This document shows, piece by piece, positions 37,839 to 64,000 of a stretch of 64,000 bases of DNA. The notes under the pieces are model-generated. The model saw only the letters and a program-made list of their open reading frames with translations. It did not search any database and had not been told where the DNA came from. The DNA comes from an uncultured Gammaproteobacteria bacterium. Its GTDB lineage: Bacteria; Patescibacteriota; Microgenomatia; Daviesbacterales; UBA10151. Position 1 is the first letter of the stretch. Each line of letters starts with the position of its first letter. The DNA is taken from contig CAZCNP010000001.1 in NCBI GenBank assembly GCA_964500725.1, positions 766-64,765 on the forward strand. Reading direction: 5' to 3'. The position numbers and the translations under genes were made by a program.

Positions 37839-39536
37839 ATGAAAGTTTCTATAAACTGGTTAAAAGAATTAGTAGATTTAAAAGCTTCTGTTGAGGAGCT
37901 AGTGAAGCTTTTAGCTCTTAGGACTATTGGAACCAAAGAAGTAACAGGCCAATATATTGAGCTGGATATGAAAGGCTACAATAGGGCAGACCTGTTATCT
38001 TTAAGAGGGGTAGCCAGAGAAATAGCTGCTATTACTGATTCTCAAATTACTTTTGAAAATGAGAACCCTAATAAATTCCCTTGGGTTACCCAAAAACTAC
38101 CTGAAACACCAGTTAAAGTAGAAAATCCAGAGCTGGCTCCAGTTTATTGTATTGTCAAAATTGAGGGACTAAAAATTGGTCCTTCTTCTAAAGAGTGGGT
38201 AAATAAACTTGAAAGCAGTGGTATAAGATCAGTGAATAATCTGGTAGATATAACCAACCTCCTGATGGTTGAATATGGTCAAGACATGCATGCATTTGAT
38301 GCTGACTGTATTGCTGAACAAAAACTAATAGTTAGACTTGCAAAAAAAGGAGAACAGTTAACAACCCTTGATGGAAAAAGGCTTCAGCTATCAGAAGAGG
38401 ATTTGATAATTGCTGACCCTCAAAAACCAGTTGGCTTGGCAGGTATCATGGGAGGTAAGGATTCAGAAGTTTCTCAAAATACCCAGACTATTTTTTTGGA
38501 GATCACTATTTTTGATCCCATTGCTATTCGTAAAAGCAGCCACAGGCATAGACTTCATTCAGAAGCTGCAAAAAGAGTCCAACATGGGCTTACCAGAACT
38601 AATCTTCTACAATCAATGTCTGCTGCTATAAAAATGTATGAGAGCTTAGGAGGCAAAGTCACAGCAATTACATTAATAGGAGACCTAAAAGATGAAACTA
38701 AAACTGTTACTTTATCTCAAGAAAAAATTAACTCTTTAGTTGGAGTAGATATTTCTCCTGAACAAGTAGAAGATTCTTTAACTAAGCTAGGTTTTACTTT
38801 AGCTTCCCACATCGGAAGTGGGAATGTAATTTGGGAAGTTACAGTTCCATACTGGAGACTGGATATAAATATTGAGGAGGATATAGTAGAGGAAGTAGCC
38901 AGGATGTATGGTTATGAAAAGATTCCTGCCAAGCCTTTGACTGACAATATACCAAATATAGAGGAAAATCCCCTTTTTGAGGCTTTAGAGAGGCTTAAGC
39001 AGGCACTTTCAAAGACAGGTCTAACTGAAGTCCAAACCTATTCCTATTACTCCAGCAAGGTAATTCTCAATTCTCAATTCTCAATTGTCAATTTGATCAA
39101 AGTTGCCAATCCTATCTCATCTGAAACAGAATACTTAAGAGATAATCTTTGGCCAAATTTACTGGAAGCAGTTGCTAAAAATATTAGAAATGGAGTTAAA
39201 GATGTTGCTATTTTTGAGGTAGGAAAAGCCTACCTTATAAAGAATGGCTTACCAGAAGAACCTCACAGGTTAGCTATAGCTTTATCAAATAGTACTGATA
39301 ATCCTATTGCTGAGCTTTACCAGATTTTCCAACGTTTAGGATCACACCTGGAAGGTATCAAGCTAAATGCTGATAAGAAACCAGGACGAGAAACTTTTCA
39401 TCCCACCAGATCATCTGTTTTAGAAGAAGATGGAAAACAAGTTGGCTTTATAGCTGAAATCCACCCCAGGATTGTTAATAAATTTGGAATAGACCAAAGA
39501 GTAGCTGTGTTGGAAATAGAAATAAATAATTACTAA
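37839..39536 (+). CDS. pheT: Phenylalanyl-tRNA synthetase beta subunit (short form)
   Basis: B3/4 and B5 regions (VTVPYWRLDINIEEDIVEEVARMYGYEKI). Contains an in-frame REP-like insert at 38801-38827 and a 7-mer tandem repeat at about 39056-39084. Confidence 0.9.
   Translation: MKVSINWLKELVDLKASVEELVKLLALRTIGTKEVTGQYIELDMKGYNRADLLSLRGVAREIAAITDSQITFENENPNKFPWVTQKLPETPVKVENPELAPVYCIVKIEGLKIGPSSKEWVNKLESSGIRSVNNLVDITNLLMVEYGQDMHAFDADCIAEQKLIVRLAKKGEQLTTLDGKRLQLSEEDLIIADPQKPVGLAGIMGGKDSEVSQNTQTIFLEITIFDPIAIRKSSHRHRLHSEAAKRVQHGLTRTNLLQSMSAAIKMYESLGGKVTAITLIGDLKDETKTVTLSQEKINSLVGVDISPEQVEDSLTKLGFTLASHIGSGNVIWEVTVPYWRLDINIEEDIVEEVARMYGYEKIPAKPLTDNIPNIEENPLFEALERLKQALSKTGLTEVQTYSYYSSKVILNSQFSIVNLIKVANPISSETEYLRDNLWPNLLEAVAKNIRNGVKDVAIFEVGKAYLIKNGLPEEPHRLAIALSNSTDNPIAELYQIFQRLGSHLEGIKLNADKKPGRETFHPTRSSVLEEDGKQVGFIAEIHPRIVNKFGIDQRVAVLEIEINNY
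38801..38827. repeat. REP-like 27-nt palindrome (AGCTTCCCAC ATCGGAA GTGGGAATGT) in frame inside pheT (encodes SHIGSGN)
   Basis: 7-bp inverted repeat TTCCCAC/GTGGGAA around a 7-nt spacer. It is near-identical to the copies at 47437-47463 and 58018-58044. Confidence 0.8.
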
Positions 39537-39563
39537 TTAACTAATTAACCTAATTTCTAAAGA

Positions 39564-39926
39564 ATGACTAATGATAAAATTACTAATAAGTTTGATTTAG
39601 AAGATAGAACTGCTAAATTTGGAGAAGATACCATACAGTTTTGTCAAAAAATACCCAAGGGACCTATCACTAATCCTCTAATAACTCAACTAGTAAGATG
39701 TAGTACTAGTGTAGGAGCAAATTATTGTGAGGCAGATGATGCAGAAAGTAGAATGGATTTTAAGCATAAAATAGGCATTTGTAAAAAAGAATCAAGAGAA
39801 TCTAAACATTTTATTAGAATGATTGTGGTTGCAGTACCAAATTTAAAAGAAGAAGCAAGATTATTATGGCAAGAAGCTAAAGAACTAAATTTGATTTTCA
39901 ATTCAATATTTAAAAAAGTTACATAA
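39564..39926 (+). CDS. Four-helix-bundle protein (23S rRNA intervening-sequence protein family, TIGR02436-like)
   Basis: QLVRCSTSVGANYCEADDAESRMDFKHKIGICKKESRESKHFIRM fits the family pattern. Flanked by AT-rich TTAGTAATT/ATTAGAAATT repeats. Confidence 0.65.
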   Translation: MTNDKITNKFDLEDRTAKFGEDTIQFCQKIPKGPITNPLITQLVRCSTSVGANYCEADDAESRMDFKHKIGICKKESRESKHFIRMIVVAVPNLKEEARLLWQEAKELNLIFNSIFKKVT

Positions 39927-39975
39927 TTTAGTAATTGGGATTTATTTAGTAATTAGAAATTAGTAATTAGAAATT

Positions 39976-42567
39976 TTATAAGGCTACAGTAACCCCAATT
40001 GAATGGGTGAAGGTCCCACCATTGTTATCTTCTAAAGTAACTGAAATAGTATGTGATCCTTTATCTCCATTAGGAAACTCAACATGTAAAGCATAAGGCT
40101 CAGAGGTCTGAGTAGATTTAATACCCCCATCTATTAACCAGGTCATCTTTTTAACTCCTGCAGGAGAATTTGCCCTGGCTAAAACATCAAAAACCCTGGG
40201 AACATTAGCCCCATTTGTAACATTAACTATCTCAACAACAGCCCCAGTCCCAGCAGTAAATCCTGGCACCCCTGAACAACCCTGGGAAGCTCCCACAAAC
40301 CTAGGATCAGCAGCAGTTAATACCCACTCATCTATCCCTTTCTGCCATTTATTAGCTCCAGTTGGATCATCTTCTTTTAAAACAACCACATCCTTTTCCT
40401 CATTATCTTCACCATCATTGGCTAACCTGTGAGTGTTACTTTTACAGACCTTTTTTCTTTGATAAGATCCTGATTCTCCTTTAGGCTCAGTTCCTGCTAT
40501 AAAATATTCTTTTCTGGTAGGAGAACCACCATGAGGCTTGCCAGTCATCAACCCATCCACCTCTACTTGTAAAACATTTTCAGGTTTGGCAAAAGGCTCA
40601 TTTTGCTTACCTTCTAAAGCAGCTCTCATTATCTTATTCCAAATAGGGGAGGCTCCAGTAACTCCAGAGGCTACCACAGGGCTCATCTCAGCATTGTTGT
40701 TATTTCCTACCCAGGCTCCTACTACCACAGATGGGGTATACCCCACAGCCCAGTTATCTCTTTTTTGATCTGTTGTTCCAGTTTTAACAGCTACAGTTTT
40801 TCCTGGAATATTTAATACTGAGTTTGAACCAAAAGCAGCAGTTCTGGCTCCATTATCAGATAAAATATCAGAAATAATAAAAGCAATCCCTGGTTCTAAG
40901 ACTTTTCTTCCCTCAGGCTGTCTATATTCAAAAAGGGTTTTTCCTTTACTATCTGTAACCTTTAAAATAGAGATTGGATCAAGCTGCATGCCTTGATTGG
41001 CAAAAACAGCATAGGCTGAAGCTAAATCCAAAAGTCTTACTTCTCTTCCTCCTAATACTAAAGATAATCCAACAGAGTTAATATTCTCCTCAGAAGGCTC
41101 CCAGGTTGAAATACCCATCCTATATCCAAGCTCCATAGCATCTTTTACCCCGACCAGAGCCAAGTTTTTAACAGCAGGGATATTGTAAGAATTAGCCAGG
41201 GCATACCTTAACTGAACTGGACCATGAAACTGACCATCATAATTTACTGGGTTGTAAGCTGGTTGATCTCCTCCAGGAAATTCAGTCTTAACATCCATAT
41301 AAACCTGGCTGGCTGTATAACCTTTTTCCAAAGCTTTTGTATAAACAATGGGTTTGGTGGCAGAACCTGGCTGTCTTGGGGCAATAGCCACATTAACATT
41401 AGGTTCAAAAGTACAAGTTTCTCCCTCTTTACAACCTTCAGGCAAAGAATCTCCAAAATAATCCTTGCTTCCAACCATAGCTAAAATCTGCCCAGTTTTA
41501 GGATCCAATACTACAGCAGCAGCATTTCCCACCTTTGCAGAAGATAAGCTTTCTACTTCTTCTTTAACTATCTCTTCAGCCTTTTTCTGCAACTTATAAT
41601 CCAAAGAGGTAGTTACTCTCAAACCCCCACTTTCCACCATCCTGTCCCCAAATTGTTCTATTAATTTTTCTTTAACATACAAAACAAAATGGGGGGCTTT
41701 AAAGCCTTGTTCACTTCTGCTGGTTCTATAAGTTAACTCTGCTGCTGCAGCCTCTTCAGCTTGATTTTTAGTAATATATTTATCCTCAACCATCCTATTT
41801 AAGACTTCTTTTTGCCTTGTTTTGGCAAGCTGAGGACGGGTGCCGTATGGAGAATAAACAGAAGGCCTTTGAGGAAGTCCTGCAAGGAGCGCTGCCTCAG
41901 CCAAATTTAAATCCTTAGAAGATTTACCAAAGTATAAATTAGCTGCAGCTTCTATCCCATAAGCAGTACCACCATAAGGAATCTCATTTAAATACATCTC
42001 TAAAATTTGGTCTTTGCTGTAAGACCTTTCAACTTGAACAGCTAGGATAAACTCTTTAAGTTTTCTAGTAACAGTTCTTTCCCCAGAAAGCAGGGCATTT
42101 TTAACAAGCTGCTGGGTTAAAGTTGAACCTCCCCCTTCAACCTGCCTATGAATAACCAATTTAAACAGTGACCTGACAATTCCAGATACAGAAAAACCAC
42201 CGTGTTTATAAAAATCCTTATCCTCTATAGAAAGAGTAGCCTGTTTTACATAATCTGGAATATCAGCAAGTTTTACAGGAGTCCTATTTTGATCTTCATA
42301 AATATCATACAAAAGCTCATCTTCTTTATCATAAATTTTAGTAGCTGCTGCTATTTCCCTGTTGGTTAAATCAGAAGGGTTGGGGATTTGGGTTGCAAAA
42401 AAGATCACTGCAGCAAAAAGCAAAAAAAGAAAACCTACCACAATAACTAAAATACTGGCAGATAGGCCTGATAATAGTTTGAATTTCCAGAGTTTTTTAC
42501 TTTGTCTTCTGGCACTCCAGGAACCATGAGTCATCTTAGAGAGATTATACCAACTCTGGAAAGTCAA
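39976..42567 (-). CDS. Class A penicillin-binding protein PBP1A (transglycosylase + transpeptidase) with a C-terminal Ig-like extension
   Basis: N-terminal TM segment, GT51 motifs (ATKIYDKEDELLYDIYE...GGSTLTQQLVKN), transpeptidase SATKP and KTGTT. Confidence 0.85.
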   Translation of the reverse strand: MTFQSWYNLSKMTHGSWSARRQSKKLWKFKLLSGLSASILVIVVGFLFLLFAAVIFFATQIPNPSDLTNREIAAATKIYDKEDELLYDIYEDQNRTPVKLADIPDYVKQATLSIEDKDFYKHGGFSVSGIVRSLFKLVIHRQVEGGGSTLTQQLVKNALLSGERTVTRKLKEFILAVQVERSYSKDQILEMYLNEIPYGGTAYGIEAAANLYFGKSSKDLNLAEAALLAGLPQRPSVYSPYGTRPQLAKTRQKEVLNRMVEDKYITKNQAEEAAAAELTYRTSRSEQGFKAPHFVLYVKEKLIEQFGDRMVESGGLRVTTSLDYKLQKKAEEIVKEEVESLSSAKVGNAAAVVLDPKTGQILAMVGSKDYFGDSLPEGCKEGETCTFEPNVNVAIAPRQPGSATKPIVYTKALEKGYTASQVYMDVKTEFPGGDQPAYNPVNYDGQFHGPVQLRYALANSYNIPAVKNLALVGVKDAMELGYRMGISTWEPSEENINSVGLSLVLGGREVRLLDLASAYAVFANQGMQLDPISILKVTDSKGKTLFEYRQPEGRKVLEPGIAFIISDILSDNGARTAAFGSNSVLNIPGKTVAVKTGTTDQKRDNWAVGYTPSVVVGAWVGNNNNAEMSPVVASGVTGASPIWNKIMRAALEGKQNEPFAKPENVLQVEVDGLMTGKPHGGSPTRKEYFIAGTEPKGESGSYQRKKVCKSNTHRLANDGEDNEEKDVVVLKEDDPTGANKWQKGIDEWVLTAADPRFVGASQGCSGVPGFTAGTGAVVEIVNVTNGANVPRVFDVLARANSPAGVKKMTWLIDGGIKSTQTSEPYALHVEFPNGDKGSHTISVTLEDNNGGTFTHSIGVTVAL

Positions 42568-42633
42568 TGCGAATGCATGTGTATTTGGTATTTAACAATA
42601 CATGTATTGGATATTGTATAATTTGCTTGAAAT

Positions 42634-42873
42634 ATGAATATACCTTTTAAATTACTCTCCACAGTATTACTTGGTCTAGGAACAAACTTCTTGGTTAGCC
42701 CATTCGTGGCTTGGTTACTCTTTTACAGTAGCTCTGAACGATATCTTTGGACAATCCAGGGACCTTTCCCATTTAACTATGCAGGAAGCAGTGCAGGATT
42801 ACTGTTTGTACTAATCGGAATATTGCTTCTTGGATTTTTCTTAATCTTTCTTTCTCAACTTATTAAAAAATAA
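42634..42873 (+). CDS. Small membrane protein (2 TM)
   Basis: Hydrophobic ORF. Confidence 0.35.
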   Translation: MNIPFKLLSTVLLGLGTNFLVSPFVAWLLFYSSSERYLWTIQGPFPFNYAGSSAGLLFVLIGILLLGFFLIFLSQLIKK

Positions 42874-42945
42874 TCCAGATTTTCTTCTAATTTGAGCGTA
42901 GTAAAAATTATAGTCTTTCTAAAAAAGTATACAAATTCTAAAGGG

Positions 42946-43028
42946 TCCGGAGGGAAGGGATCGAACCTTCGTAGGGTTACCCCGCCAGATTTACAGTCTG
43001 GAGCAATTGACCACTCTGCCACCTCCGG
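42946..43028 (-). tRNA. tRNA-Tyr (anticodon GTA), long variable arm
   Basis: Acceptor CCGGAGG/CCTCCGG, D-stem GCAG/TTGC, anticodon stem CCAGA/TCTGG, loop CTGTAAA, T-loop TTCGATC. Confidence 0.8.
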
Positions 43029-43077
43029 ATCCTGTTATTATACCTAAATTTGCTGATTGAGGAAAGGGGACTACCTT

Positions 43078-43921
43078 TTAAACTATGCTTACTAAAATTA
43101 CTCCCAAAATAGTAATAAATACCCCTGTTAGCTGAAACTTGGTAATTTTTTCTTTAAACCAAACAAAAGCTAAAAATAACATTACTAAAGAAGAGCTAGC
43201 TGAAATTGGAGTAACTATTGATGCTGGACCTTTTTGTAAAGCAAGATGAAAAAATAAAACTCCAATAAACAGAAAAAAAACTTGAGGCTATAGCATAACT
43301 AGTTTCTGGTGATATTTTCCTGGGTAAAATAAATTTCCTACTACTTAATAAATTTAAAATTACTGCTACAATAGTCCACCCTAAAACAAAAGATATAGAA
43401 TAACTGTAAGCCCCATACTCAGAACTCATTACCTTAGCTATAAAATCCCCTAAACCAGCAAAAACAGCGCCTCCTAAACCCCACAATAACCAAGTACCAA
43501 TTTTTATATTTTTAATTTCCTTTGGGTGTTCTAAAGAGATAAAAATTAAACCTAATAAAATAGCAAAAATACCAAATTTTGCTGTAGCAGTAATAGATTC
43601 ATTTAAAAACAGTGAGGCTAAAATAACAGTATAAAGTGGATAAGTTTCCAAGACTGTACCAGTTAAAGATAATTTGCCCTTTTCTAAAGCATAATAATAT
43701 AAAGCATATCCTCCTGAGGCTATAGCAGCAGCTGGGACTAAAGGCCAAAAAATAAATTTTCCTCCCTGTAAAAGTGAAAAAGGGATCAAAGTTATAACAG
43801 AAGCAACACCCCTAAGGCTAACATAATCAATAGGGGATAATTGCTTATAAGCTCTTTTGGCAAAAGCAATATTTAACCCCCAGACTAAAGCTGTAAGAAA
43901 AGATAATAGCAACCAATCCAT
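43078..43921 (-). CDS. DMT/EamA family transporter, interrupted by a -1 frameshift in an A8 (sense T8) homopolymer at about 43271-43280
   Basis: The ORF-track frame ends in junk (FSVYWSFIFSSCFTKRSS). The other frame continues with canonical EamA sequence (FFLFIGVLFFHLALQKGPASIVTPISASSSLVMLFLAFVWFKEKITKFQLTGVFITILGVILVSIV) to the stop at 43078. Confidence 0.6.
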
Positions 43922-43966
43922 TATTAAGTTATATCATTTATTTAAGAAAATCTGTAAAATATCCTG

Positions 43967-44341
43967 ATGCCAACTGCAGAAGCAAGAGAGCAAGGAAAAA
44001 ATACACAGGATTCAAAAAAACTTGTATTATCCTTGGATTTTGCTCGCAAAGTACATGAGTGCATTCAGGAATTACCTATTAATACTCCTATCGCAGATCT
44101 TAAATTCTGGCGCCAGCATCCTGGGCGCATACCTACATGGACTCAGCTAATGAGAAACTCCTCACATTGGGAGCAAAAGCAATTAAGCGCTCTCTTCTAT
44201 AGAATACTTCGTTCCCCTGGAGGCAAAGATATCAATCTTGGCGCACTTACAACCGAGTTTGATGTAGACACACTAACACTATGGAGTAACAGTGGGGGAA
44301 CCGGAAAAACATTTGTTCGCGAAGCCTTCCAGAAATTTTAA
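43967..44341 (+). CDS. Hypothetical protein (GC-richer islet)
   Basis: ORF with local GC of about 42-44% against a background of about 33%. Confidence 0.45.
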   Translation: MPTAEAREQGKNTQDSKKLVLSLDFARKVHECIQELPINTPIADLKFWRQHPGRIPTWTQLMRNSSHWEQKQLSALFYRILRSPGGKDINLGALTTEFDVDTLTLWSNSGGTGKTFVREAFQKF

Positions 44342-44400
44342 GATTATATCTTTACCACATTATTGACTTTAAAAAAAATCTTGGTAATAATCATAAAGGC

Positions 44401-44970
44401 ATGGGATTGTTAACCGAAGTCCTCCATTTTGGAAGATCTATATTACCAGGAGAACCCCCTAAAACATTAGATGATATCAAAGCTGTAGAAGAATGCGCCA
44501 CTGCTACCGAAATGCTCCTTAGTGATACCGGCCTAGCATGGACAAGAATGGCCAACAATAACACTGTTATAATCGGAGAAGTTATCACAAACAAAGGTCG
44601 GGTTGTGAGCCACCAATCTTGGTTTATCGTACGCAACAGAAAGGGTCGTTTAGAGATTGAGGTGGCTCCAACTGATGGAGCAGAAATAACACTGGATGTT
44701 TTTGCAAACAGCCAACCAGAGACGCCTTTAACACAGTCAATCGCCAATCATAACCAACAATTTGAACCTATTAATATCGGTGATGGTCAATTTGGCAAAT
44801 TACGCTATGAAACTAGGGAACCCAATCTAGGTCCAGAAGCAACTTTTATTATAGATCAGCAAGGAATACGTCCATTTGCAAGTGAAAAACCCGTTAGAGA
44901 AGTTGAAGAAATTGGAGGGCGAGATACTCATATCATCAAGTCTATTCTTGCCGAACCCTCATCTACATAA
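44401..44970 (+). CDS. Hypothetical protein (GC-richer islet)
   Basis: ORF in the same compositional island. Confidence 0.45.
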   Translation: MGLLTEVLHFGRSILPGEPPKTLDDIKAVEECATATEMLLSDTGLAWTRMANNNTVIIGEVITNKGRVVSHQSWFIVRNRKGRLEIEVAPTDGAEITLDVFANSQPETPLTQSIANHNQQFEPINIGDGQFGKLRYETREPNLGPEATFIIDQQGIRPFASEKPVREVEEIGGRDTHIIKSILAEPSST

Positions 44971-46149: not shown

Positions 46150-46602
46150 TTAAGCCTTTTTTACTAGGAAATATAATCCAATTACCTCTATTGATATCAT
46201 TAAAAGATTCAAGTTATCAGATGCAGAACTTAAACTACCCAGTCCCAGCCAAAAATTAATATTTAAAAATATACCTCCTAAAAGCCCCGACATTAGTAAA
46301 ACTCTTGCCCATTTGAGTTGATATTGTTTTAGAAGCAATACTGATCCAATAGTAATAGCCATCCCGCTCAACAACTCTCCCCACATAACCAGGGTCCCAA
46401 ACAGATAAGAGTTGGGTATCACAATACTAGTTAAAAATTGTTTAAAAGCAGGATAGGGGTTATTATCAACACTTTTAGATAATATCTGTCCCAAAGAAGA
46501 TGCAAAACTGCCTTCAGAAAATTTTGTCAGACTGCTTCTTAGCCAAACAAAACCTATTGATAAAAGTATCAGCAGCAATGGTTTATTATTCATATAAATC
46601 AA
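46150..46602 (-). CDS. Membrane protein (4 TM), hypothetical
   Basis: Hydrophobic ORF overlapping the GT2 stop. Confidence 0.45.
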   Translation of the reverse strand: MIYMNNKPLLLILLSIGFVWLRSSLTKFSEGSFASSLGQILSKSVDNNPYPAFKQFLTSIVIPNSYLFGTLVMWGELLSGMAITIGSVLLLKQYQLKWARVLLMSGLLGGIFLNINFWLGLGSLSSASDNLNLLMISIEVIGLYFLVKKA

Positions 46603-48365
46603 TTATCAGTCCATTTAGTTTCTGGAGTCTCCACCCTTCCTAATTTTTGACCTAATAACAAAACGAAAGATAGCAGATAACTATAAAACTTACCATGATA
46701 ATGTACCGAAGCTTTTTTTAGTAACTCATAAGCTTTTTCGCGGCCAATTCTTTTAGTAGAACCTCCATGATGGTGAATAAACTTTGCCTCTGGCACAAAG
46801 AATAAAGGCACCCCGAACTGTTTTAATCTTCTGGCATATTCAATATCCTCAAAGAAAATGAATGATCCTTCATCTAATAACCCAACTTTATTAAGTATCT
46901 TCTTGGGAATGAACAAACAAGCCATTACCATCCCTTCTACCAGAGAGTGCTTATCGCCTGTAGGTAAATACATAAAATAAGACCCTTTCTGAGCCAGAAA
47001 ATACTCCTTAAATGCTCCAGTTAGGGTAGGCAAATGAAAAGCAGAATCTTGGGAAGAATAATCTGGAAAAACTAATTTTCCTCCTAAAACAGCCTTTCCT
47101 TTGAATTGCTCCTCAGCTTCTATTAATTTAGAAATGCCACCCTCTAAAACTTCTATATCAGAATTTAACATTAAATAATACTCACCTAGAGAGTACTTTA
47201 TTGTTTTGTTATAGCCTTTGGAGAAACCTTCATTTTCTTTATTTTGTAAATATTTAACATTAAACTGATTGATCCAACTTGAGCAAGGATCCAAAAGCCC
47301 ATTATCTAAAACTATTACCTCCATATTTTTTTCATCAAAACCAGATTTTTTATCAAAAATGCTTTGCAGGAGTTTTTTGGTTAAATCTGCAGTGTTGTAA
47401 TTTACTATTCCTATTGATAATTTCAAAGGATATTCTACGTTCCCACTTCCGATGTGGGAAGCTAAATTCCCATTTCCTGTTATGCCTAAATAAAAATCCA
47501 ATATTCCTTTTCTTTGAGCTGGCCTGCCAAAAATAAACAGCCATAAAGCCTCTCTAAGTAAAGCAAACCTAGTCCTTAATTTTCCATACTGCATCCCAAA
47601 AATTAATCTGTTTCTGGTGTGGTAATAATCTGTAAGTTCTGATCCTATTCCTGTAGACTGGGAAACTTTATGATAAATGCTTGTCTTGCCATTATAGTAA
47701 ATCTTAAATCCTGCATCTTTAACTCTTTTTGCAAAATCACTATCTTCAAAGTACAAGAAATATTTTTCATCTAAACTCACTTGTTCAAAAACTTCTTTTT
47801 TTACTAGCACACAAGCCCCAGAAAAAATCTCAGCTTCTTCAACTTGATCATATTGTCTCTTATCTACTTCATCTATTCCTCTGTGAATCGAGCCAATATT
47901 ATCCCAGTCAAATTTTCCCCCAGCAAACCAAATTACTCTTCCTAAATCCTGCCTTTCATACCTGTCTTTGTGAAATTCAAATCCAGGAGCAAAATAAATT
48001 TTAGGAGAAACCAAACCAATTTTTGAATCAGATTCTAATGTTTTTATAAGTTGAGAAATCAAATCAGCATCACTTACTTCACAATCATTATTTATCAGTA
48101 AAAAATAATCAGACCCACAAATTTGGGCATACTCTATACCTTTGTTAAACCCTCCAGAAAACCCCAAATTTTCTCCAGTTTGCACTATATCAACTTCAGG
48201 AAACTGTTTATGGAAAGCTTGTATTCTTCCATCTATAGATCCGTTATCCACAACAACAATTTTCAATTCTCCATTGTCAATTTTCAATTTCTCTAGCGAT
48301 TCTAAAAACTCTAGCGTGTCTTTTTTTCCGTTGTAATTTAGCGTAATTATTGCGGCTTTTTTCAT
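46599..48365 (-). CDS. Tandem two-domain family-2 glycosyltransferase (GT-A x2)
   Basis: Two ITLNYNG...VVDNGS and IVNYNT...VLDNG GT2 modules. The linker carries an in-frame REP-like insert at 47437-47463. Confidence 0.75.
   Translation of the reverse strand: MKKAAIITLNYNGKKDTLEFLESLEKLKIDNGELKIVVVDNGSIDGRIQAFHKQFPEVDIVQTGENLGFSGGFNKGIEYAQICGSDYFLLINNDCEVSDADLISQLIKTLESDSKIGLVSPKIYFAPGFEFHKDRYERQDLGRVIWFAGGKFDWDNIGSIHRGIDEVDKRQYDQVEEAEIFSGACVLVKKEVFEQVSLDEKYFLYFEDSDFAKRVKDAGFKIYYNGKTSIYHKVSQSTGIGSELTDYYHTRNRLIFGMQYGKLRTRFALLREALWLFIFGRPAQRKGILDFYLGITGNGNLASHIGSGNVEYPLKLSIGIVNYNTADLTKKLLQSIFDKKSGFDEKNMEVIVLDNGLLDPCSSWINQFNVKYLQNKENEGFSKGYNKTIKYSLGEYYLMLNSDIEVLEGGISKLIEAEEQFKGKAVLGGKLVFPDYSSQDSAFHLPTLTGAFKEYFLAQKGSYFMYLPTGDKHSLVEGMVMACLFIPKKILNKVGLLDEGSFIFFEDIEYARRLKQFGVPLFFVPEAKFIHHHGGSTKRIGREKAYELLKKASVHYHGKFYSYLLSFVLLLGQKLGRVETPETKWTDN
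47437..47463. repeat. REP-like 27-nt palindrome (ACGTTCCCAC TTCCGAT GTGGGAAGCT) in frame in the GT2 inter-domain linker (encodes ASHIGSGNV)
   Basis: Reverse complement of the pheT copy with one mismatch. Confidence 0.8.
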
Positions 48366-57753: not shown

Positions 57754-57797
57754 GTTATATATTGTGCCTGAATTCCAATTATTTTACAAGAAGCTTT

Positions 57798-57826
57798 TTC
57801 CTACATTCCCACATCGGATGTAGGAA
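57798..57826. repeat. REP-like variant hairpin (TTCCTACAT tcccacatcgg ATGTAGGAA), 3' of the transposase
   Basis: 9-bp inverted repeat that contains the family core TTCCCACATCGGA. Confidence 0.7.
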
Positions 57827-57832
57827 TACGAA

Positions 57833-58555
57833 TTAATCTTCACCATCAATTAGTAATCCAAACAGTGCAGGATCATAAACTTCAGTTTCCTCAACAAAAG
57901 ACTGATAATCTAAATTGGGATTAGTTTTGGAAAAAAATGAATTAATAAAACCAGTATCACAAAAAGGATGCTGTTTTCCAGATAAATAATATGAATAAGA
58001 GGAATAGGGGTAATGTCTACGTTCCCACATCGGAAGTGGGAAGCTGTTTCTATGTATATATTTTGATAGGTGAAGAAGGTATTCTTCTGTCTCAACTAAC
58101 TTGGCTTTAAAACTGCCTTGAAATAAAGAACCAACTCTATCATGTTTAGTATTAAAGTATCTTGTGTAACTATCTGCTAATCTCCTTAAGAATTCTGATA
58201 TACCACCATCAGATATTTGCTGGACTAACAGGTGAAAATGGTTTGGCATCAAACAATAACAATATATTCTAACCAATTCTGTTTGATTCTCTATTTTTTT
58301 GAGTTTTATTACACCTCTTCTAAAATCTGAAAGTTTCATAGGTACAGGATATTTGCGGTAAAAATCCAAAGTTTCTAAAAACCTCAAATGATCTCTTCTA
58401 TCCATAAAGGTTTTTCTTTTTTCAACACCGCGGTTATAAATATGATAAAAACTGCCACTTACAAATGGGGGATTAACCACAAACTTATTCTCTACATTCG
58501 TGTTCCCACATGTCAAGTGGGAATTCAACTGGAAGAAACTAGTGCTTTTTCCCAT
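57833..58555 (-). CDS. tnpA: Y1 HuH transposase (IS200/IS605 TnpA-like / REP-associated tyrosine transposase)
   Basis: FYHIYNRGVEKRKTF, HuH motif CLMPNHFHLLV and a C-terminal catalytic YIHRN. Both ORF ends read through REP-like palindromes, so the true N- and C-termini are probably shorter. Confidence 0.75.
   Translation of the reverse strand: MGKSTSFFQLNSHLTCGNTNVENKFVVNPPFVSGSFYHIYNRGVEKRKTFMDRRDHLRFLETLDFYRKYPVPMKLSDFRRGVIKLKKIENQTELVRIYCYCLMPNHFHLLVQQISDGGISEFLRRLADSYTRYFNTKHDRVGSLFQGSFKAKLVETEEYLLHLSKYIHRNSFPLPMWERRHYPYSSYSYYLSGKQHPFCDTGFINSFFSKTNPNLDYQSFVEETEVYDPALFGLLIDGED
58018..58044. repeat. REP-like 27-nt palindrome (ACGTTCCCAC ATCGGAA GTGGGAAGCT) overlapping the transposase 3' end
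   Basis: Canonical family member. It shares both arms with the GT2 copy and differs only in spacer orientation. Confidence 0.8.
58501..58529. repeat. REP-like variant (GTTCCCAC ATGTCAA GTGGGAATTC), 27 nt inside the transposase 5' end
   Basis: Same 7-bp arms with a different spacer. It shares the GTGGGAATTCA flank with the recG copy. Confidence 0.7.
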
Positions 58556-59010
58556 ATCTCTTGGTTACGAGATAAGAAAAACTTATGATCAGAATAACCA
58601 TCCCTCCTTAATTGTTCTCTGGTATAAGGCTGGTGACCTGATCTTTGCATCTCTTGTAAAATAGCTCCTCTCTGATCTGGGGTAGCTCCATCAAATCTAA
58701 TCTTTCTCCAAAATCTAACACTCCAATGCATAGCATCTACTGGAGTAACTAAACCTCTGGAGCGTGGAATGTTGACCATTGCATGGTTTATCAACAATTT
58801 GGCATCTACTTCGCTTCTTGCCAACGGATCAATTCCACCAATACGCACCCCCCAATCGCGACCCAAATACCTTTCAATATTTTCAATAGCACCAAAATAT
58901 CTCCGTCTCTCCCATACAGATTCTGCGTTAGGATCAAATCTACCTTCGCCCCTTCCGTCTTGAGGACATAAACCAAAATATAAATATAACTCAGCGTAAG
59001 CTTCTGGCAT
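58525..59010 (-). CDS. Hypothetical protein (161 aa), GC-richer
   Basis: ORF. I recognise no motif. Confidence 0.45.
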   Translation of the reverse strand: MPEAYAELYLYFGLCPQDGRGEGRFDPNAESVWERRRYFGAIENIERYLGRDWGVRIGGIDPLARSEVDAKLLINHAMVNIPRSRGLVTPVDAMHWSVRFWRKIRFDGATPDQRGAILQEMQRSGHQPYTREQLRRDGYSDHKFFLSRNQEIWEKALVSSS

Positions 59011-59045
59011 ATACTATAGGGAAGTATATCACAGTGGAACAATAG

Positions 59046-59120
59046 CTTACTTAGTCTAATTTTTCCCTTTGATTCCTTAGGAAAAGAAACCACTGTTCAA
59101 AGAAGGCAAATATGCCTTTT
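59046..59120. repeat. Direct repeat copy A (about 72 nt), a duplicate of the 3' end of gene 59745-61316
   Basis: 62 nt (59049-59110) are identical to 59744-59805, then one mismatch, then ATGCCTTT. Confidence 0.8.
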
Positions 59121-59131
59121 ATCTTGCTATA

Positions 59132-59476
59132 ATGAATCTTACTATGAAACTTCCCAATGGCAATAATGCTTTAGTTTCCAAAGAGAAGTTGACTGGTTAT
59201 CTTCTTTCAGAAACCCATGCAGTAGGTAAGGCGAAGGCTAAGTTCTTTCGTAAATTAGGGTTTAATGAATCCAATGTCAATAAGTTTGAGAAATCATTGC
59301 TAAATATTGCAAAGAGAAACGAAATAAAAAATGTTAAGGAATTCACATATGGTATTAATTATGTCTTAGAAGGGAAAATTAAAACTCCAAGTAGAAAAAT
59401 AATAACTCTAGTGACAGTCTGGTTTACTAAAACAAAAGGAGGAAGACCTAGTTTTGTAACAGCATATCCTGTATAA
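59132..59476 (+). CDS. DUF6883-like protein (predicted toxin-like partner of DUF4926)
   Basis: KLTGYLLSETHAVGKAKAKFFRKLGF resembles the DUF6883 signature. Family recalled from memory. Confidence 0.45.
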   Translation: MNLTMKLPNGNNALVSKEKLTGYLLSETHAVGKAKAKFFRKLGFNESNVNKFEKSLLNIAKRNEIKNVKEFTYGINYVLEGKIKTPSRKIITLVTVWFTKTKGGRPSFVTAYPV

Positions 59477-59494
59477 TACATAAGGGATAAATTT

Positions 59495-59731
59495 ATGCAC
59501 AAATTTAAGAATTTAGAAACAGTTATATTAACTCATGATATTAAAAAATACGGTCTCTGCAAAGGAGACATGGGAGCTGTTGTAAATGTGTACGAAGATG
59601 GCAAAGCAGCAGAAGTAGAATTTGTGACTGCTGCCGGTAAAACCGCAGCGCTAGTTACTCTAACTTCTGATGATGTTCGCGACATCAAACAAAACGATAT
59701 ACTTCATGTCAGAGGCTTTGCTGCAGTATAA
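59495..59731 (+). CDS. DUF4926 domain protein
   Basis: VILTHDIKKYGLCKGDMGAVVNVYEDGKAAEVEFVTAAGKTAALVTL matches the DUF4926 pattern. Confidence 0.55.
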   Translation: MHKFKNLETVILTHDIKKYGLCKGDMGAVVNVYEDGKAAEVEFVTAAGKTAALVTLTSDDVRDIKQNDILHVRGFAAV

Positions 59732-59740
59732 TTCTTATAT

Positions 59741-59817
59741 CTACTTAGTCTAATTTTTCCCTTTGATTCCTTAGGAAAAGAAACCACTGTTCAAAGAAGG
59801 CAAAGATGCCTTTAAAT
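59741..59817. repeat. Direct repeat copy B (native 3' end of gene 59745-61316)
   Basis: See copy A. It encodes ...FFEQWFLFLRNQREKLD and the stop. Confidence 0.8.
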
Positions 59818-61316
59818 GGAGTCTCAATAATAAAATCAAAGATAAATAGAAGAATATTTATCTGGGAAATTGCTAAGGTTAACCTGCTTCCTATTTGAAT
59901 AAAAGGCATAAAGAAAAAGTCCATTACTACTGAGCTTATTCTTTCCCTTTTTTCTTTCATCACATACATATTGGCTGTTCTATTAATCCTAAAACTGACA
60001 AAAGAAACTATTGCCAGGAAGAACAAAAATATCCCCTGGGATAGAGGATTAATCCCTACTTTAGTTAAAACAAAAACAATTGACCCAAGACTAATACCAA
60101 AAGCAGTTAGCCACATCAGTATAAACAAACTCCACATCAAGGGATCAGTTTTGCTTGGTTTTTTCTTTACTGTCAAAGGCTGGTCCAAAGCTGGAGGATC
60201 ATCATACAAAATAGTATTTATTTTCTTTAAAATCTTAAATGAATTTTCCCTTGTTGGAGTTTTAATTAAAAACCCTACTAAAATCATCAAGGCTGGAGGA
60301 GTTAAGGTATTTAAAACTATAGAAGGCCAAAGTATCCTGCCATACAAAATCCTTTCAAATGTTCCTTCCACAAAAAGGGCAAACACAGCCTTTGTACAAA
60401 ATATAAAAATAACACTTCTAACAATTGCTCTGTTAACTTTGCTTCTGATAGCTTTATAGCGCGCATTACAAGCTGCTAAAATTTCTGAATTTAGACGATC
60501 TTCGTCTAAAACTAAAGCTGCAGTTTTACCCCGATACTTTCTGAAAACATCATCCAAAATTAAAAAGGGGACTGACTGATTCTTAATATAAGTATATATT
60601 TTGTCTTTAGCTGGATATTTAAAATGATCCTCAAATTGCTTATAAGCATCCGCAAAACCTTCTGCCACTTTTTCTAAATTCTCACTATTTAAATGCCCAA
60701 AGTATTGTTTAAAAAGGTGATAGCGTAAAAATGCCAAATCATCGTTGGCATATGCCCGCCTCACAGCAATAAAAGTCTGGATATTCTTTACCTCATCAGT
60801 ATCATCAGCAATTGTTATTCTATCTTTGAAGATATTAAAGATAAAATTACTCATAACATCTTTGGGATCATTGGGTTTTAAAATATGCTCAATCTCAGAA
60901 GATACAAGGTGCATAATCCATTCATTTACTGCTCCTTTACCAATGCGGTGCTTCTGGTTAACTTTTCGTTCTAACTCCAAGTATAAATCTAGGGCATGTG
61001 AAACTTGAGCTACCTGAGATTCAGCTATAGTAAAATCAGGAAAATATCTTGCCCAAACAAGTTCGCGAATTAAAGGGGTAGCAACAGTTTTACCTTCTCC
61101 TCCTAGTATTAATCTTCTTTTTAATATTCGCTCAATGGCAGCCCGGAGAATTACCTCTTCAGCTCTATAATCCATTGCAGTTCTAAATTTTTCATACCAG
61201 GTAGCAAGCTCAGCCACCACAGGGTTAACAGAAATAGTCCTATCATGGTTTTGGGCAGAATTTTTATCATATGCTGCAGTTAATGCCTGAGAAAGCCTGT
61301 TTAAGTTTTTAGACAT
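59745..61316 (-). CDS. Hypothetical protein (523 aa) with a large cytoplasmic N-domain and a C-terminal multi-TM region
   Basis: ORF with C-terminal hydrophobic helices. Confidence 0.5.
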   Translation of the reverse strand: MSKNLNRLSQALTAAYDKNSAQNHDRTISVNPVVAELATWYEKFRTAMDYRAEEVILRAAIERILKRRLILGGEGKTVATPLIRELVWARYFPDFTIAESQVAQVSHALDLYLELERKVNQKHRIGKGAVNEWIMHLVSSEIEHILKPNDPKDVMSNFIFNIFKDRITIADDTDEVKNIQTFIAVRRAYANDDLAFLRYHLFKQYFGHLNSENLEKVAEGFADAYKQFEDHFKYPAKDKIYTYIKNQSVPFLILDDVFRKYRGKTAALVLDEDRLNSEILAACNARYKAIRSKVNRAIVRSVIFIFCTKAVFALFVEGTFERILYGRILWPSIVLNTLTPPALMILVGFLIKTPTRENSFKILKKINTILYDDPPALDQPLTVKKKPSKTDPLMWSLFILMWLTAFGISLGSIVFVLTKVGINPLSQGIFLFFLAIVSFVSFRINRTANMYVMKEKRERISSVVMDFFFMPFIQIGSRLTLAISQINILLFIFDFIIETPFKGIFAFFEQWFLFLRNQREKLD

Positions 61317-61322
61317 AAATTC

Positions 61323-61745
61323 TTAAAGAGCTTTTAAAAACCCTTTTGTCTCCTTAATAGTTTTATCAGGAATATTTTTAAAATATGCATATTTGCTTGC
61401 TTGTCTATCAAGCTTGATTTGGGTACTTTTAAGCTTAACTAAAAGTTCTACTGCAAGCGCATGTCCAAAAATAGTGGATTTGCCAAAATATTCCACAATA
61501 CCTAAATATTTTTCCACCTTTGCTTTTACCCCAAGCTCTACCTGAGATATCCTTTCTGCAGCTTCTTCCAAAGTTTCGCCATGAAGAACTGATCCTCCAG
61601 GAAGATGCCAAAAATCTTTAGAAGGAGGAATATTTCTTAAGGTAAGCAAAATACCATCATTGCTTTTCACTATTAGCTCTACACAAAGCCTGGGAGCTTT
61701 TTTATAAATATTTCTAAATTCTTCTGATGTCAGTTGTCTAGGCAT
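61323..61745 (-). CDS. NUDIX hydrolase
   Basis: Nudix box GGSVLHGETLEEAAERISQVELGV. Confidence 0.75.
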   Translation of the reverse strand: MPRQLTSEEFRNIYKKAPRLCVELIVKSNDGILLTLRNIPPSKDFWHLPGGSVLHGETLEEAAERISQVELGVKAKVEKYLGIVEYFGKSTIFGHALAVELLVKLKSTQIKLDRQASKYAYFKNIPDKTIKETKGFLKAL

Positions 61746-61777
61746 ATGGTAATATTAGCATATCGGACTGAAAAACT

Positions 61778-62899
61778 ATGACTCTAGATGAAAAATTTAA
61801 ATTAATAACCAGAAACTTAGAAGAAGTTTTAACTGAAGAAGAACTAAAGACTTTAATAAATTCTGGAACCCCTCTTAAACATTATATTGGCTTTGAAATT
61901 TCTGGAAAATTACATCTAGGATATCTATTTACATTATTAAAAGTTAAAGACTTGCAGGATGCAGGTGCTGAAACAATTATCTGGCTAGCAGATCTGCATT
62001 CAGCTATTAATGATAAATTAGATGGAAATTTAGAAACTATTAAAAGGGTAGCAAGAGGGTATTTTACAGATGCTTTTAAAGCCCTTTTTAAAAGTATCGG
62101 GGGAGATCCAAACAAACTACAGTTTAAGCTTTGTTCTGAAACTTATTCAGAAAACCCAGATTTTTGGCTGACTTTACTAGAGATTGGTAAAACTACCACA
62201 CTAGCCCGTACTAAAAGATCAATCACTATTATGGGTAGGGAACAGTCAGATGATAGCATGCCAACTGATAAACTCTTTTATCCTATTATGCAAGCAGCTG
62301 ATATTTTTCTTTTAGGTGCAAACATTGCCCATGCTGGAATTGACCAAAGGAAAGTACATGTAATTGCCAAAGATGCAGCCATGCAGGTTAAAACCTATCC
62401 TTTGAAAGATATAAGAGGCAATCAAATAAAACCAGTTGCTATTCATCATCCTATTTTACTTAGCCTCAGTGGGCCTACCAAAAGCGAAGGATCCGTAGAT
62501 GAAATGGCCATGAAAAATAAAATGAGCAAGTCTAAACCAGGCAGTGGGATAACTCTCCATGACAGCCCAGAACAAATCAATGCAGCTATAAACCAGGCAT
62601 ATGCCCCAGAAGGAATAGTGGAAGGAAATCCAGTTTTAAATTGGACAAAATACATTATTTTCTATAACCCTGGTTCCAATCTAGAAATTAAAAGACCAGA
62701 AAAGTTTGGAGGAAATATTACCTATACTTCTTATGAAGATCTGGAAAAAGACTATGCTGCAAAAAACTTACATCCACAAGATTTAAAAATGGCTGTAGCA
62801 GAGTGGTTAATTAATAAACTTGAACCAGTAAGAAAATATTTTGAAGATCCAAAAAGAAAAGCAGCTTTAGAAGAGATTGAAAGGTTAACAACAAAATGA
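61778..62899 (+). CDS. tyrS: Tyrosyl-tRNA synthetase, archaeal/eukaryal type
   Basis: HIGH-like GKLHLG and KMSKS motifs. It aligns along its length to M. jannaschii TyrRS (IKRPEKFGG..SYE.LE......LHP.DLK.AVAE.LI..LEP.RK). Confidence 0.85.
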   Translation: MTLDEKFKLITRNLEEVLTEEELKTLINSGTPLKHYIGFEISGKLHLGYLFTLLKVKDLQDAGAETIIWLADLHSAINDKLDGNLETIKRVARGYFTDAFKALFKSIGGDPNKLQFKLCSETYSENPDFWLTLLEIGKTTTLARTKRSITIMGREQSDDSMPTDKLFYPIMQAADIFLLGANIAHAGIDQRKVHVIAKDAAMQVKTYPLKDIRGNQIKPVAIHHPILLSLSGPTKSEGSVDEMAMKNKMSKSKPGSGITLHDSPEQINAAINQAYAPEGIVEGNPVLNWTKYIIFYNPGSNLEIKRPEKFGGNITYTSYEDLEKDYAAKNLHPQDLKMAVAEWLINKLEPVRKYFEDPKRKAALEEIERLTTK

Positions 62900-63000
62900 T
62901 GAACTCAAAAAAGATGAGAATTTTCTGGATAATTTTATCTGTAATTGCAGGTATTTCAATTATTCTGTTTTCTCTTTTCCCGCTCTTTTCTGCCTTTTAA
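62896..63000 (+). CDS. 34-aa hydrophobic small ORF overlapping the tyrS stop (ATGATGA)
   Basis: Hand translation: MMNSKKMRIFWIILSVIAGISIILFSLFPLFSAF. Confidence 0.2.
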   Translation: MMNSKKMRIFWIILSVIAGISIILFSLFPLFSAF

Positions 63001-63024
63001 AAGAAACCATAGTATAATTTCCTC

Positions 63025-64000
63025 ATGAAGCTTGGAACTCCACTTGACCAGCTAATAGGAATTGGGCCAGGATTATCTTATAAGCTTAAAAAGTTAAACC
63101 TAAATACCGTAGAAGATCTAATTTATCATTTTCCTTTCAGGTATGATGATTTTTCTGCTATCAAATCTAGTACTGAGGCTCAAATAGGGGAGATTGTAAC
63201 TTTACAAGGGGAAATCTGGTCTATTAAAAATATTTTTACAAGATATGGAAAAGTATTAACCCAGGCAATTTTTAATGATGGACAGTCTCCTGTAGCTTTA
63301 ACATGGTTTAACCAGTCTTGGCTGACAAAACAAATTAAAACAGGGGACAGGCTGCAAATTTCAGGCAAACTCAGTAAGTATAAAGGCAAACTTTCTATCA
63401 TGGCCCCCAAATGGGAAAAACAGCTTCCCACATCGAATGTGGGAATTCATACAGGCAGACTTGTCCCTATCTACCCTGAAACAGAAGGGTTAACTTCTAA
63501 ATGGGTTAGAACAAAAATTGATCAGCTCTTACCTCAAATTGAAAACCAAATCCAAGACCCTTTGCCAAATTTTATTCAAGATAAAATGCTGGATTTACCA
63601 GAAGCAGTTAAAAAGATCCACTTTCCTCAAAATTATGAAGATGTTCAAAAAGCCCAAGAAAGATTAGGTTTTGATGAGCTTTTCTATATTTCTTTAGCTA
63701 CTCAAAAAACCAGACTTGCTTGGAGAGAAAAACCTACTGTTCCTCCTTTGCAAATGTACCCTAATGCCTTAGAGGAATTTATCAAAAAACTGCCTTTTGA
63801 TTTAACTAATGCTCAAAAGAAAGTAATAGATGAAGTTTTGGAGGATTTAAAAAAAGACCAGCCTATGAATAGGATGATCCAAGGTGAAGTAGGCTCAGGA
63901 AAAACAGTAGTTGCTGCTGTAATTATTTACCTGCTACATCTTAATAATTTAAAAACTCTTTTTATGGCCCCCACAGAAATTTTAGCCTTTCAGCACTTTT
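63025..64000 (+). CDS. recG: ATP-dependent DNA helicase RecG (5' partial; runs off the window end)
   Basis: Wedge-domain YHFPFRYDD, LTNAQKKVIDEV and GEVGSGKT. Absent from the ORF track because no stop falls inside the window. Contains an in-frame REP-like insert. Confidence 0.85.
   Translation, partial: MKLGTPLDQLIGIGPGLSYKLKKLNLNTVEDLIYHFPFRYDDFSAIKSSTEAQIGEIVTLQGEIWSIKNIFTRYGKVLTQAIFNDGQSPVALTWFNQSWLTKQIKTGDRLQISGKLSKYKGKLSIMAPKWEKQLPTSNVGIHTGRLVPIYPETEGLTSKWVRTKIDQLLPQIENQIQDPLPNFIQDKMLDLPEAVKKIHFPQNYEDVQKAQERLGFDELFYISLATQKTRLAWREKPTVPPLQMYPNALEEFIKKLPFDLTNAQKKVIDEVLEDLKKDQPMNRMIQGEVGSGKTVVAAVIIYLLHLNNLKTLFMAPTEILAFQHF
63422..63448. repeat. REP-like variant (AGCTTCCCACAT cga ATGTGGGAATTC) in frame inside recG (encodes LPTSNVGIH)
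   Basis: 9-bp inverted repeat with a 3-nt loop and the same family arms. Confidence 0.75.

Follow-up and report, generated by a model that had tools for sequence, protein, structure and literature searches.

What is a short palindrome doing, in frame, inside the coding sequences of unrelated proteins? The question is raised by a stretch of 64,000 nucleotides, referred to here as the window (positions 766 to 64,765 of contig CAZCNP010000001.1, assembly GCA_964500725.1), in which a palindrome of 21-30 bases with the core TTCCCAC-N7-GTGGGAA recurs within pheT, within recG, within a gene for a protein with two tandem GT2 glycosyltransferase domains, and both inside and on either side of a gene for a Y1 transposase. 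The window belongs to the candidate phyla radiation (CPR), whose members have very small genomes densely packed with genes and are generally regarded as containing little mobile DNA. Together with related genomes it holds a repeat family with in-frame coding positions, which is linked to a gene resembling those of the REP-associated tyrosine transposases (RAYT; REP, repetitive extragenic palindromic sequence), keeps its DNA identity between diverged orthologues and shows turnover at its sites. It is probable that these are GTAG-tagged REPs which, with their RAYT, belong to Daviesbacteria and other Microgenomates, the copies being tolerated in frame and the sites re-occupied or exchanged.

Results

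The repeat unit and its host genes

An exact search of the window for TTCCCAC-N(3-11)-GTGGGAA gave five matches, at 38804, 47440, 58022, 58503 and 63425, and a search tolerating mismatches added a sixth at 57806, whose right arm reads GTAGGAA. The family of six recognised in the initial annotation therefore comprises five exact copies and one with a single mismatch, and the loops of all six fit the pattern WT-NNN-AW. None of 100 dinucleotide-preserving shuffles of the window contained any such match, which excludes chance or base composition as the source of the copies. The density is approximately 1 per 10 kb, and four of the six copies lie inside long open reading frames (ORFs), those of pheT, the tandem GT2 gene, recG and the RAYT-like gene (Table 1).

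The identities of the first three of these genes, and the in-frame position of the copy in each, were as initially annotated; Pfam domains are found on both sides of the inserts and the host reading frames are intact. The pheT copy reads AGCTTCCCACATCGGAAGTGGGAA(T/C)GT, as does the GT2 copy once reverse-complemented; these are the near-identical 27-mers described previously, and both encode ASHIGSGNV (residues 322-330 of PheT and 302-310 of the GT2 protein). The recG copy is read in a different frame from these two. It fits either a 7-7-7 arrangement or a 9-bp stem closed by a 3-nt loop; folding favours the latter, in keeping with its earlier description as a 3-nt-loop variant. While the palindromic nature of the repeat was correctly recognised, its length of 27 nt was not: the flanks of the copies define an asymmetric unit of ~30 nt or ten codons, AGC-TTCCCAC-N7-GTGGGAA-N-GTAG-A, in which arm and loop measure 7 bp and 7 nt or, alternatively, 9 bp and 3 nt. 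In the window the GTAG tag is present in the copies at 47434, 58016 and 57800, and the pheT copy has GTAA. Folded as RNA, the hairpins have predicted energies of -11 to -13 kcal/mol (z-scores -2.6 to -4.4). Read on the coding strand, the GT2 copy and the copy internal to the RAYT-like gene share one 30-mer and differ only in its 7-nt loop, which is ATCGGAA in the former and inverted, TTCCGAT, in the latter. Other genomes also show both loop orientations relative to the GTAG tag, a flip/flop-like feature.

Table 1. Positions in the window of the repeat copies, their host genes and the RAYT-like gene
Feature	Position	Strand	Description
REP copy in pheT, B5 domain	38801..38830	+	AGC-TTCCCAC-ATCGGAA-GTGGGAA-T-GTAA-T; encodes ASHIGSGNV(I), residues 322-331, in frame
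REP copy in tandem GT2 gene	47434..47463	-	Coding strand AGC-TTCCCAC-ATCGGAA-GTGGGAA-C-GTAG-A; encodes ASHIGSGNVE, residues 302-311, in frame
REP copy in recG, wedge domain	63422..63448	+	AGC-TTCCCACAT-CGA-ATGTGGGAA-TTC; encodes LPTSNVGIH, residues 134-142, in frame
REP copy inside RAYT-like gene	58016..58045	-	Gene nt 438; encodes FPLPMWE(RR), residues 147-155, in frame
REP copy upstream of RAYT-like gene	58503..58523	-	23-43 nt before start codon; loop includes TTGACA
REP copy downstream of RAYT-like gene	57800..57826	-	7 nt past stop, before atpB; arm GTAGGAA; GTAG tag
RAYT-like Y1 (HUH) tyrosine transposase gene	57833..58480	-	215 aa, GTG start; Pfam Y1_Tnp E=9e-10
pheT host gene	37839..39536	+	Pfam B3_4, B5, tRNA_synthFbeta
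Tandem GT2 host gene, two GT-A domains	46599..48365	-	Pfam GT2 domains 20-232 and 317-429
recG host gene, 5' part only (runs past window end)	63025..64000	+	Pfam RecG_wedge

In the AlphaFold model of PheT (pLDDT 89, with a mean of 86 over the insert block, residues 321-330) the insert residues 322-330 form the tip of a beta-hairpin, with strands at 320-326 and 329-336 and a Ser-Gly turn at 327-328 where the confidence falls only a little, so that the two arms of the element would encode the two strands of a hairpin extension. The GT2 insert falls in the linker between the two Pfam GT2 domains. Both locations had been anticipated, in general terms for PheT, and in these predictions both inserts occupy what would be permissive places, a beta-hairpin tip and a domain linker. 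The PheT of the window is 100% identical to a Candidatus Daviesbacteria protein. The protein collection contained no near-identical strain of the host organism, the closest PheT being 72% identical, and among Microgenomates PheT identity ranges from 55 to 72%.

Conservation at the level of DNA

The copies occur in all three reading frames, in both orientations and also at intergenic positions. Among the matches listed from the genome scan described below, 30 of the 43 in-ORF copies use the frame that gives S-H-x-x-S-G, most likely because a Ser/Gly-rich peptide would be the least disruptive. The initial annotation had allowed for orthologues carrying the same peptide with no palindrome. Instead, the pheT genes of L203, L204 and L205, which were chosen from the protein alone (L-numbers denote loci from other genomes and P-numbers PheT proteins), keep both the palindrome and its unusual codons. 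These three genes, that of L121 and that of the window all read GCT TCC CAC ... AGT GGG, four being perfect palindromes and one having a single mismatch; from the codon usage of the window genome the probability of the palindromic codon set is ~0.001 per gene. In the pheT of L123 the palindrome has decayed and the peptide is altered too. Judged from these comparisons, the element is a dispersed DNA repeat rather than a protein motif, and the peptide would be a by-product.

The RAYT-like gene and its copies

The remaining copies of the window are associated with the RAYT-like gene. Its ORF (57833-58555) comprises 240 codons when read from the ATG at 58555. The closest homologues, among the best 120 listed, are mostly ~215 residues long with the N-terminus M-V-N-P-P-F, which indicates that the true start is the GTG at 58480 rather than the ATG, and this in turn places the copy at 58503 upstream of the gene and not inside it. 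The link between these copies and a Y1 transposase had been made in the initial annotation and stands, with the refinements that the 58503 copy lies upstream and that the copy at 58022 is in frame within the gene. The HUH motif H81-F-H83 and the catalytic Y141-I-H-R-N are invariant in 46 homologues, and the in-frame copy, at nt 438, directly follows the YIHRN motif. In the AlphaFold model (pLDDT 85) this copy lies in the loop after the catalytic helix. The structure with the top TM-score to the model was that of E. coli TnpA-REP with a REP hairpin (4er8, TMt 0.69), and the Foldseek matches also included the IS608-type structures 2a6m, 2vjv and 2xo6. A phmmer search of the protein against PDB sequences returned only noise.

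The arrangement of an upstream, an internal (nt 438) and a downstream copy seen in the window recurs in full in L022, L111, L200 and L202, and L016, L091 and L055 show part of it; at least eight genomes besides that of the window have copies laid out around the gene in this way. Across Microgenomates the RAYT-like protein is 64-93% identical, above the 55-72% of PheT. The gene is bordered by a class I tRNA synthetase gene and, at its other end, by the ATP synthase operon; this order, tRNA-synt_1b - RAYT - ATP synthase, is kept in L200 and L202, and recG is near the locus in L202 as in the window. It is single in every locus examined, and some genomes have paralogues at 36-42% identity. From its conserved synteny and an identity above that of PheT, the gene appears to show the behaviour of a vertically inherited gene rather than that of a mobile insertion sequence.

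The best promoter-like match near the gene, TTGACA-18-GAGAAT (58516..58487 on the minus strand, 10 of 12 positions), ends 7 nt before the start codon, and its -35-like hexamer, TTGACA, lies within the loop of the upstream REP copy. The position of this copy and a TTGAC(A/G) loop are conserved in L022, L111, L091, L055, L016 and L200, which suggests that the upstream hairpin and the RAYT promoter overlap. As to the internal copy, the peptide F-P-L-x-x-W-E is kept in nearly all of the best 120 homologues listed, and the two residues that vary within it are precisely the ones that the loop specifies. The palindrome is perfect in L200, L202 and L016, loci that were not selected by the internal copy, and has one mismatch in L055. 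L201 is without it, and the genome of L201 has a longer variant, GAGTTCCCACCT-gga-AGGTGGGAACTC. At this position the paralogous RAYTs (36-42% identity) carry an ordinary segment, YIHLNPV.SYLV, whose length is similar.

Paralogous Y1 genes with no in-frame palindrome were seen at L049 1841-2476, L064 6066-6653, L102 1158-1823, L012, L055 6645-7238 and L015 3051-3578. Palindromes flank these genes, for example GTATTCCCACT-cgtca-AGTGGGAATAC and TTCCACAC-cgg-GTGTGGAA, with REP doublets in L015, and several RAYT-REP pairs may coexist in one genome. Next to the RAYT-like gene of the window, a 161-aa ORF (58525-59010, minus strand) that matches nothing in Pfam or NCBIfam terminates 2 nt away from the upstream REP copy and is adjoined by a DUF6883 gene (59132-59476, plus strand).

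Distribution across genomes

Species-representative genomes were scanned with TTCCCACWTNNNAWGTGGGAA, a single loop pattern, and a stop-free stretch of at least 150 codons was taken as a proxy for an intragenic position. The scan gave at least 118 blocks compared with ~35 chance matches by our own estimate, an enrichment in line with the earlier expectation. The following counts and taxa are those among the matches listed. One group of carriers consists of Microgenomates (Daviesbacteria, Levybacteria and Shapirobacteria), with several copies per genome in Daviesbacteria and Levybacteria assemblies, and the other of Campylobacterota, large sulfur bacteria, Methylococcaceae and Gilliamella. By the 150-codon proxy, 43 of 80 copies are intragenic in Microgenomates and 9 of 64 in other phyla. 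Set against a crude coding fraction of at least 0.82 for the window, the figure of 43/80 means that the copies are somewhat depleted in genes relative to random placement, a depletion far weaker than is usual for REPs. An exact N-GTAG is found on one side of 31 of the 80 Microgenomates copies, never on both sides; it is missing in the other 49, so the tag is not universal, and in other phyla it accompanies 2 of 64 copies.

Hosts identified by Pfam in the relatives are MurC (five species), MurF, MurT, PheS, CysS and an M1 aminopeptidase, together with HolB, the clamp-loader delta-prime subunit, of which one gene has two copies, and the alanine racemase Alr, with two copies. Judged by eye, further hosts are the ATP synthase gamma subunit, phosphoglycerate kinase and peptide deformylase.

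The loci of the second group are L025, L030, L037, L043, L047, L078, L093, L096, L103, L107 and L007/L026, from Sulfuricurvum, Sulfurimonas, Helicobacter bilis, relatives of Beggiatoa and Thiomargarita, Methylococcaceae and Gilliamella. Here the TTCCCAC-N7-GTGGGAA core stands within longer stems (e.g. tctcgTTCCCAC...GTGGGAAcgaga), with no GTAG tag and mostly outside long ORFs. Third-party metagenome-assembled genomes labelled 'uncultured Gammaproteobacteria' also appear (L019, L020, L022, L045, L051, L063, L071, L076, L077, L104, L111 and others). Those checked carry orthologues of the RAYT, RecG or PheT of the window, so the label appears to be wrong and the genomes to be Microgenomates. The nearest relatives of the PheT (72%) and RAYT (92%) of the window are in CAYQAW01. 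The only array-like match, CCCCAC...GTGGGG in L177, is from an unrelated gut contig and CRISPR was discarded as an explanation; this human-gut contig, which has a distant PheT, carries at 57-1900 regular GTCGCCCCACGCA(T/G)GTGGGGCGTGGA-like repeats ~68 nt apart that are CRISPR-like.

Different palindromes at shared sites

The initial annotation had envisaged that the inserted segment might be present in some orthologues and absent from others. The states are indeed patchy, but in place of clean filled and empty pairs the sites hold other palindrome families. Among orthologues the B5 loop of PheT contains the TTCCCAC family, other palindromes, tandem or nested copies, or nothing. A second palindrome at this loop, (C/T)(G/A)CAAGG(C/T)-N3-(G/A)CCTTG.., encodes SQG.AL and a third type, CACC(C/T)...(A/G)GGTG, encodes H(L/P).G. 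In P0017 the arrangement is nested, ASHSSTPIKSGSSGNV. When the PheT sequences are ordered by average-linkage clustering outside the loop, which gives an order of similarity and not a proper phylogeny, the loop states remain patchy, with 61 of the 120 sequences unclassified; the closest pair with contrasting states, P0051 and P0105, differ at 5% of residues.

The second of these palindromes is GC-rich, fills the PheT loop in many Daviesbacteria and is also present in two other ORFs. Its sites are L144 10967-11010 (a tandem duplicate), L119 6746, L130 10953, L074 2017 and L082 5256. No transposase associated with it was identified. The flanks of the same loci contained no extra CGCAAGGC-type palindromes, and elsewhere there were only two, in L074 and L082.

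The other hosts resemble PheT in this respect. At the GT2 linker the window and L205 have TTCCCAC, L199 and L138 have TTCCACC-cgaaa-GGTGGAA, and L088 has a palindrome of the CCACC...GGTGG type. At the RecG site TTCCCAC is shared by the window and L105; L016 and L022, the latter being the closest relative found, have CCCACAC-N3-GTGTGGG, L114 has CCACCC-gga-GGGTGG, and L111 has a nested form. In this last gene (~4569-5588) the sequence is TTCCCAC tcgtcaagctcgcctcgcgaagcgg GTGGGAA, the arms being parted by a longer, palindrome-like insert. Differing palindromes at shared sites are also found in MurC, at two sites, and in HolB, at three. As far as can be read from these orthologues, the sites are hot spots shared across species, not recent one-off insertions.

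Discussion

The account that we consider probable is of a REP-RAYT system that Daviesbacteria and related Microgenomates would have conserved by vertical inheritance, with the RAYT gene between two REP copies and a third in frame within it. REP copies would be written into coding DNA, the RAYT presumably moving them via single-stranded hairpin intermediates; the mechanism of REP dissemination in general is still unsettled. Copies would persist in genes by virtue of a length that is a multiple of three, the lack of stop codons in the frames used, a short and mostly Ser/Gly-rich peptide, and landing in beta-hairpin tips, domain linkers and variable loops, and would probably be translated and neutral. 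Turnover would arise both from new insertions beside or inside old copies and from homologous recombination between lineages, and such re-occupation or exchange of permissive sites would leave orthologous sites in different species with differing palindromes or with none.

Several observations weigh against this account. No clean pair of filled and empty sites at high identity was found among the orthologues compared, and the insertion event and its target site are to that extent not demonstrated. PheT orthologues free of the palindrome are only 4-8 residues shorter, rather than a clean 9-10, and the palindrome within the RAYT-like gene replaces a segment of similar length in the paralogues, adding no length. 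The pheT genes of L199 (9047-10708) and L138 (10001-11623) have an overall nucleotide identity of 91.5%, and in a tract of ~170 nt around the B5 loop, where the type of palindrome switches, the identity is 40-60%; the divergence of this tract points to import by recombination, not to precise insertion. The transposase scores 39.8 bits against the NCBIfam family REP_Tyr_transpos (NF047646), where the cutoff is 80, and it is for this reason that the gene is termed RAYT-like and regarded as a distant relative of the curated family. Finally, the counts from the genome scan are samples from one loop pattern and not a census, and a stop-free stretch only stands in for a gene call.

The L199/L138 tract, with its switch of palindrome, would fit with copies being spread and homogenised mainly by recombination or gene conversion, with little transposition by the RAYT and with the palindromes as passengers in, or stimulators of, the imports. 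The patchy loop states of close PheT sequences such as P0051 and P0105 and the inverted loop between otherwise identical 30-mers are also in its favour. Exchange between orthologues cannot, however, put the same 30-mer in unrelated genes (pheT, the GT2 gene, murC, holB and the RAYT gene) or in intergenic DNA; some copy-and-paste step at these non-homologous sites is still needed, and recombination as the main agent is very unlikely. That selection acts on SHIGSGN, FPLxxWE and the related peptides as protein motifs, the palindrome being incidental, is extremely improbable. It would account for the preference for the S-H..S-G frame and for the near-universal FPLxxWE of the RAYT clade, but the same DNA is read in three frames, lies in either orientation and is also intergenic, its codons keep to the palindromic set, the hosts are unrelated proteins and the residues that vary are exactly those that come from the loop. 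The frames, the orientations and the fixed codons led us to set aside selection on the peptide.

Alternatively the hairpins might be kept for a function in the host, as binding sites for the domesticated RAYT or another DNA- or RNA-binding factor, as mRNA hairpins that pace translation where domains meet, or, in the case of the internal and promoter copies, in autoregulation of the RAYT gene; with little intergenic space, functional hairpins would have to lie in genes. Consistent with this, hairpin potential is kept at orthologous sites despite differing arms (TTCCCAC/GTGGGAA, TTCCACC/GGTGGAA, CCCACAC/GTGTGGG and CGCAAGGC/GCCTTGCG), the RNA hairpins have folding energies of ~-11 kcal/mol, and the syntenic RAYT outranks PheT in conservation, retains F-P-L-x-x-W-E with variable loop residues and has a -35-like hexamer in its upstream copy. 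The arm families look, though, like separate repeats, some of them tied to RAYT paralogues, and not like compensatory drift of one helix. Presence is patchy among close relatives, copies have decayed (the pheT of L123, the RAYT of L201), many orthologues have no palindrome (61 of the 120 PheT sequences being unclassified), and neither the host proteins nor the positions of the inserts are related. A host function therefore seems decidedly unlikely. A bolder proposal, which we regard as unlikely, is that the REP-RAYT system of Microgenomates has been domesticated and is vertically inherited: owing to the compactness of the genomes, hairpins would reside mainly in essential genes at fixed 'landing pad' loops, where they would be overwritten by the current REP variant of the lineage, and the RAYT would control itself through the REP that bears the -35 hexamer and through the in-frame REP that follows its catalytic tyrosine. 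If this were true, REP hairpins would be maintained features that shape protein surfaces, and not transient parasites.

Returning to REPs that are tolerated in frame, the system would add to Rickettsia a second large-scale and independent example of 'protein-coding palindromes', again in a reduced genome. It would explain many short, lineage-specific inserts in CPR proteins that are otherwise taken to be adaptive, and the inserts would serve as natural markers of permissive loops. The many orthologous sites in varied states could be used to study the movement of REPs and the co-evolution of RAYT and REP. The inserts can also mislead alignments, phylogenies and structure predictions of CPR proteins.

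Comparison with known systems

REPs with a GTAG tag and an accompanying RAYT gene, known as 'REPtrons', were reportedly described by Nunvar in 2010 and by Bertels and Rainey in 2011. The GTAG REP superfamily is defined by a terminal GTAG (or degenerate GTRG), a stem of 5-13 bp, a loop of 2-20 nt and an association with RAYT genes (Di Nocera et al. 2013, PMC3733652). REPs tagged with GTAG or CGTC have been reported within genes of Opitutus, Thauera and others, genes for tRNA synthetases and DNA repair among them (PMC3733652). The Daviesbacteria unit is alike in the size range of its stem-loop, in having GTAG at one end, in its dispersal, in the Y1/HUH gene that it flanks and in some of its copies being intragenic. 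The main departure is that GTAG REPs are mainly extragenic, whereas about half of the sampled Microgenomates copies, among the matches listed, are intragenic. The Daviesbacteria units are also single and minimal, with no REPIN-style dimers, the GTAG lies one base past the 3' arm and usually on the coding strand, and the RAYT-like gene has its own in-frame copy, which recurs across the orthologue group. The protein itself falls below the NCBIfam cutoff for curated RAYTs, and Patescibacteria or Microgenomates are not among the phyla of the survey in PMC3733652.

Elements of the IS200/IS605 type (IS608, ISDra2) share the Y1 HUH fold and have hairpins in the same orientation on both sides of the gene. 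They differ in that an insertion sequence is expected to be multi-copy and mobile, whereas the RAYT-like gene is syntenic and single per locus examined, and its hairpins are also found alone and far from the gene. DNA uptake sequences (DUS/USS) occur at ~1 per kb, are non-palindromic and have no link to a transposase; the density of ~1 per 10 kb, the palindromy and the RAYT link rule them out here.

The Rickettsia palindromic elements (RPEs), of which RPE-1 is roughly 100-150 bp long, are the closest in terms of where the copies lie. As summarised in PMC3733652, RPEs are in-frame insertions within genes (Ogata et al. 2002; Claverie and Ogata 2003), RPE-4 and RPE-6 have a CGTC tag and no dedicated transposase, and RPE-1 is a longer palindromic insertion. 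Both systems have in-frame palindromes in functional and often essential proteins of a small, reduced genome, with several inserts possible in one protein, the same sites used across species and the inserts thought to be on the protein surface. The Daviesbacteria units differ in being ~30 nt long (7-10 residues), in their GTAG tag and in their linkage to a RAYT gene. By analogy they would work like RPEs and are not members of the RPE family. The likeness to Rickettsia drawn in the initial annotation is thus sound, with the qualification that in-frame intragenic REPs had already been described outside Rickettsia (PMC3733652). Full-text literature on REP or RAYT in Patescibacteria, the candidate phyla radiation or Microgenomates gave nothing relevant, in agreement with the earlier statement that the arrangement was undescribed for CPR genomes. 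The phenomenon, a rare one known from Rickettsia and a few other bacteria, is new to the lineage and not new in kind: besides the lineage itself, what sets it apart from the known systems is the large proportion of copies inside core genes, the in-frame RAYT copy kept across a whole orthologue group, and the succession of palindromes at the same loops.

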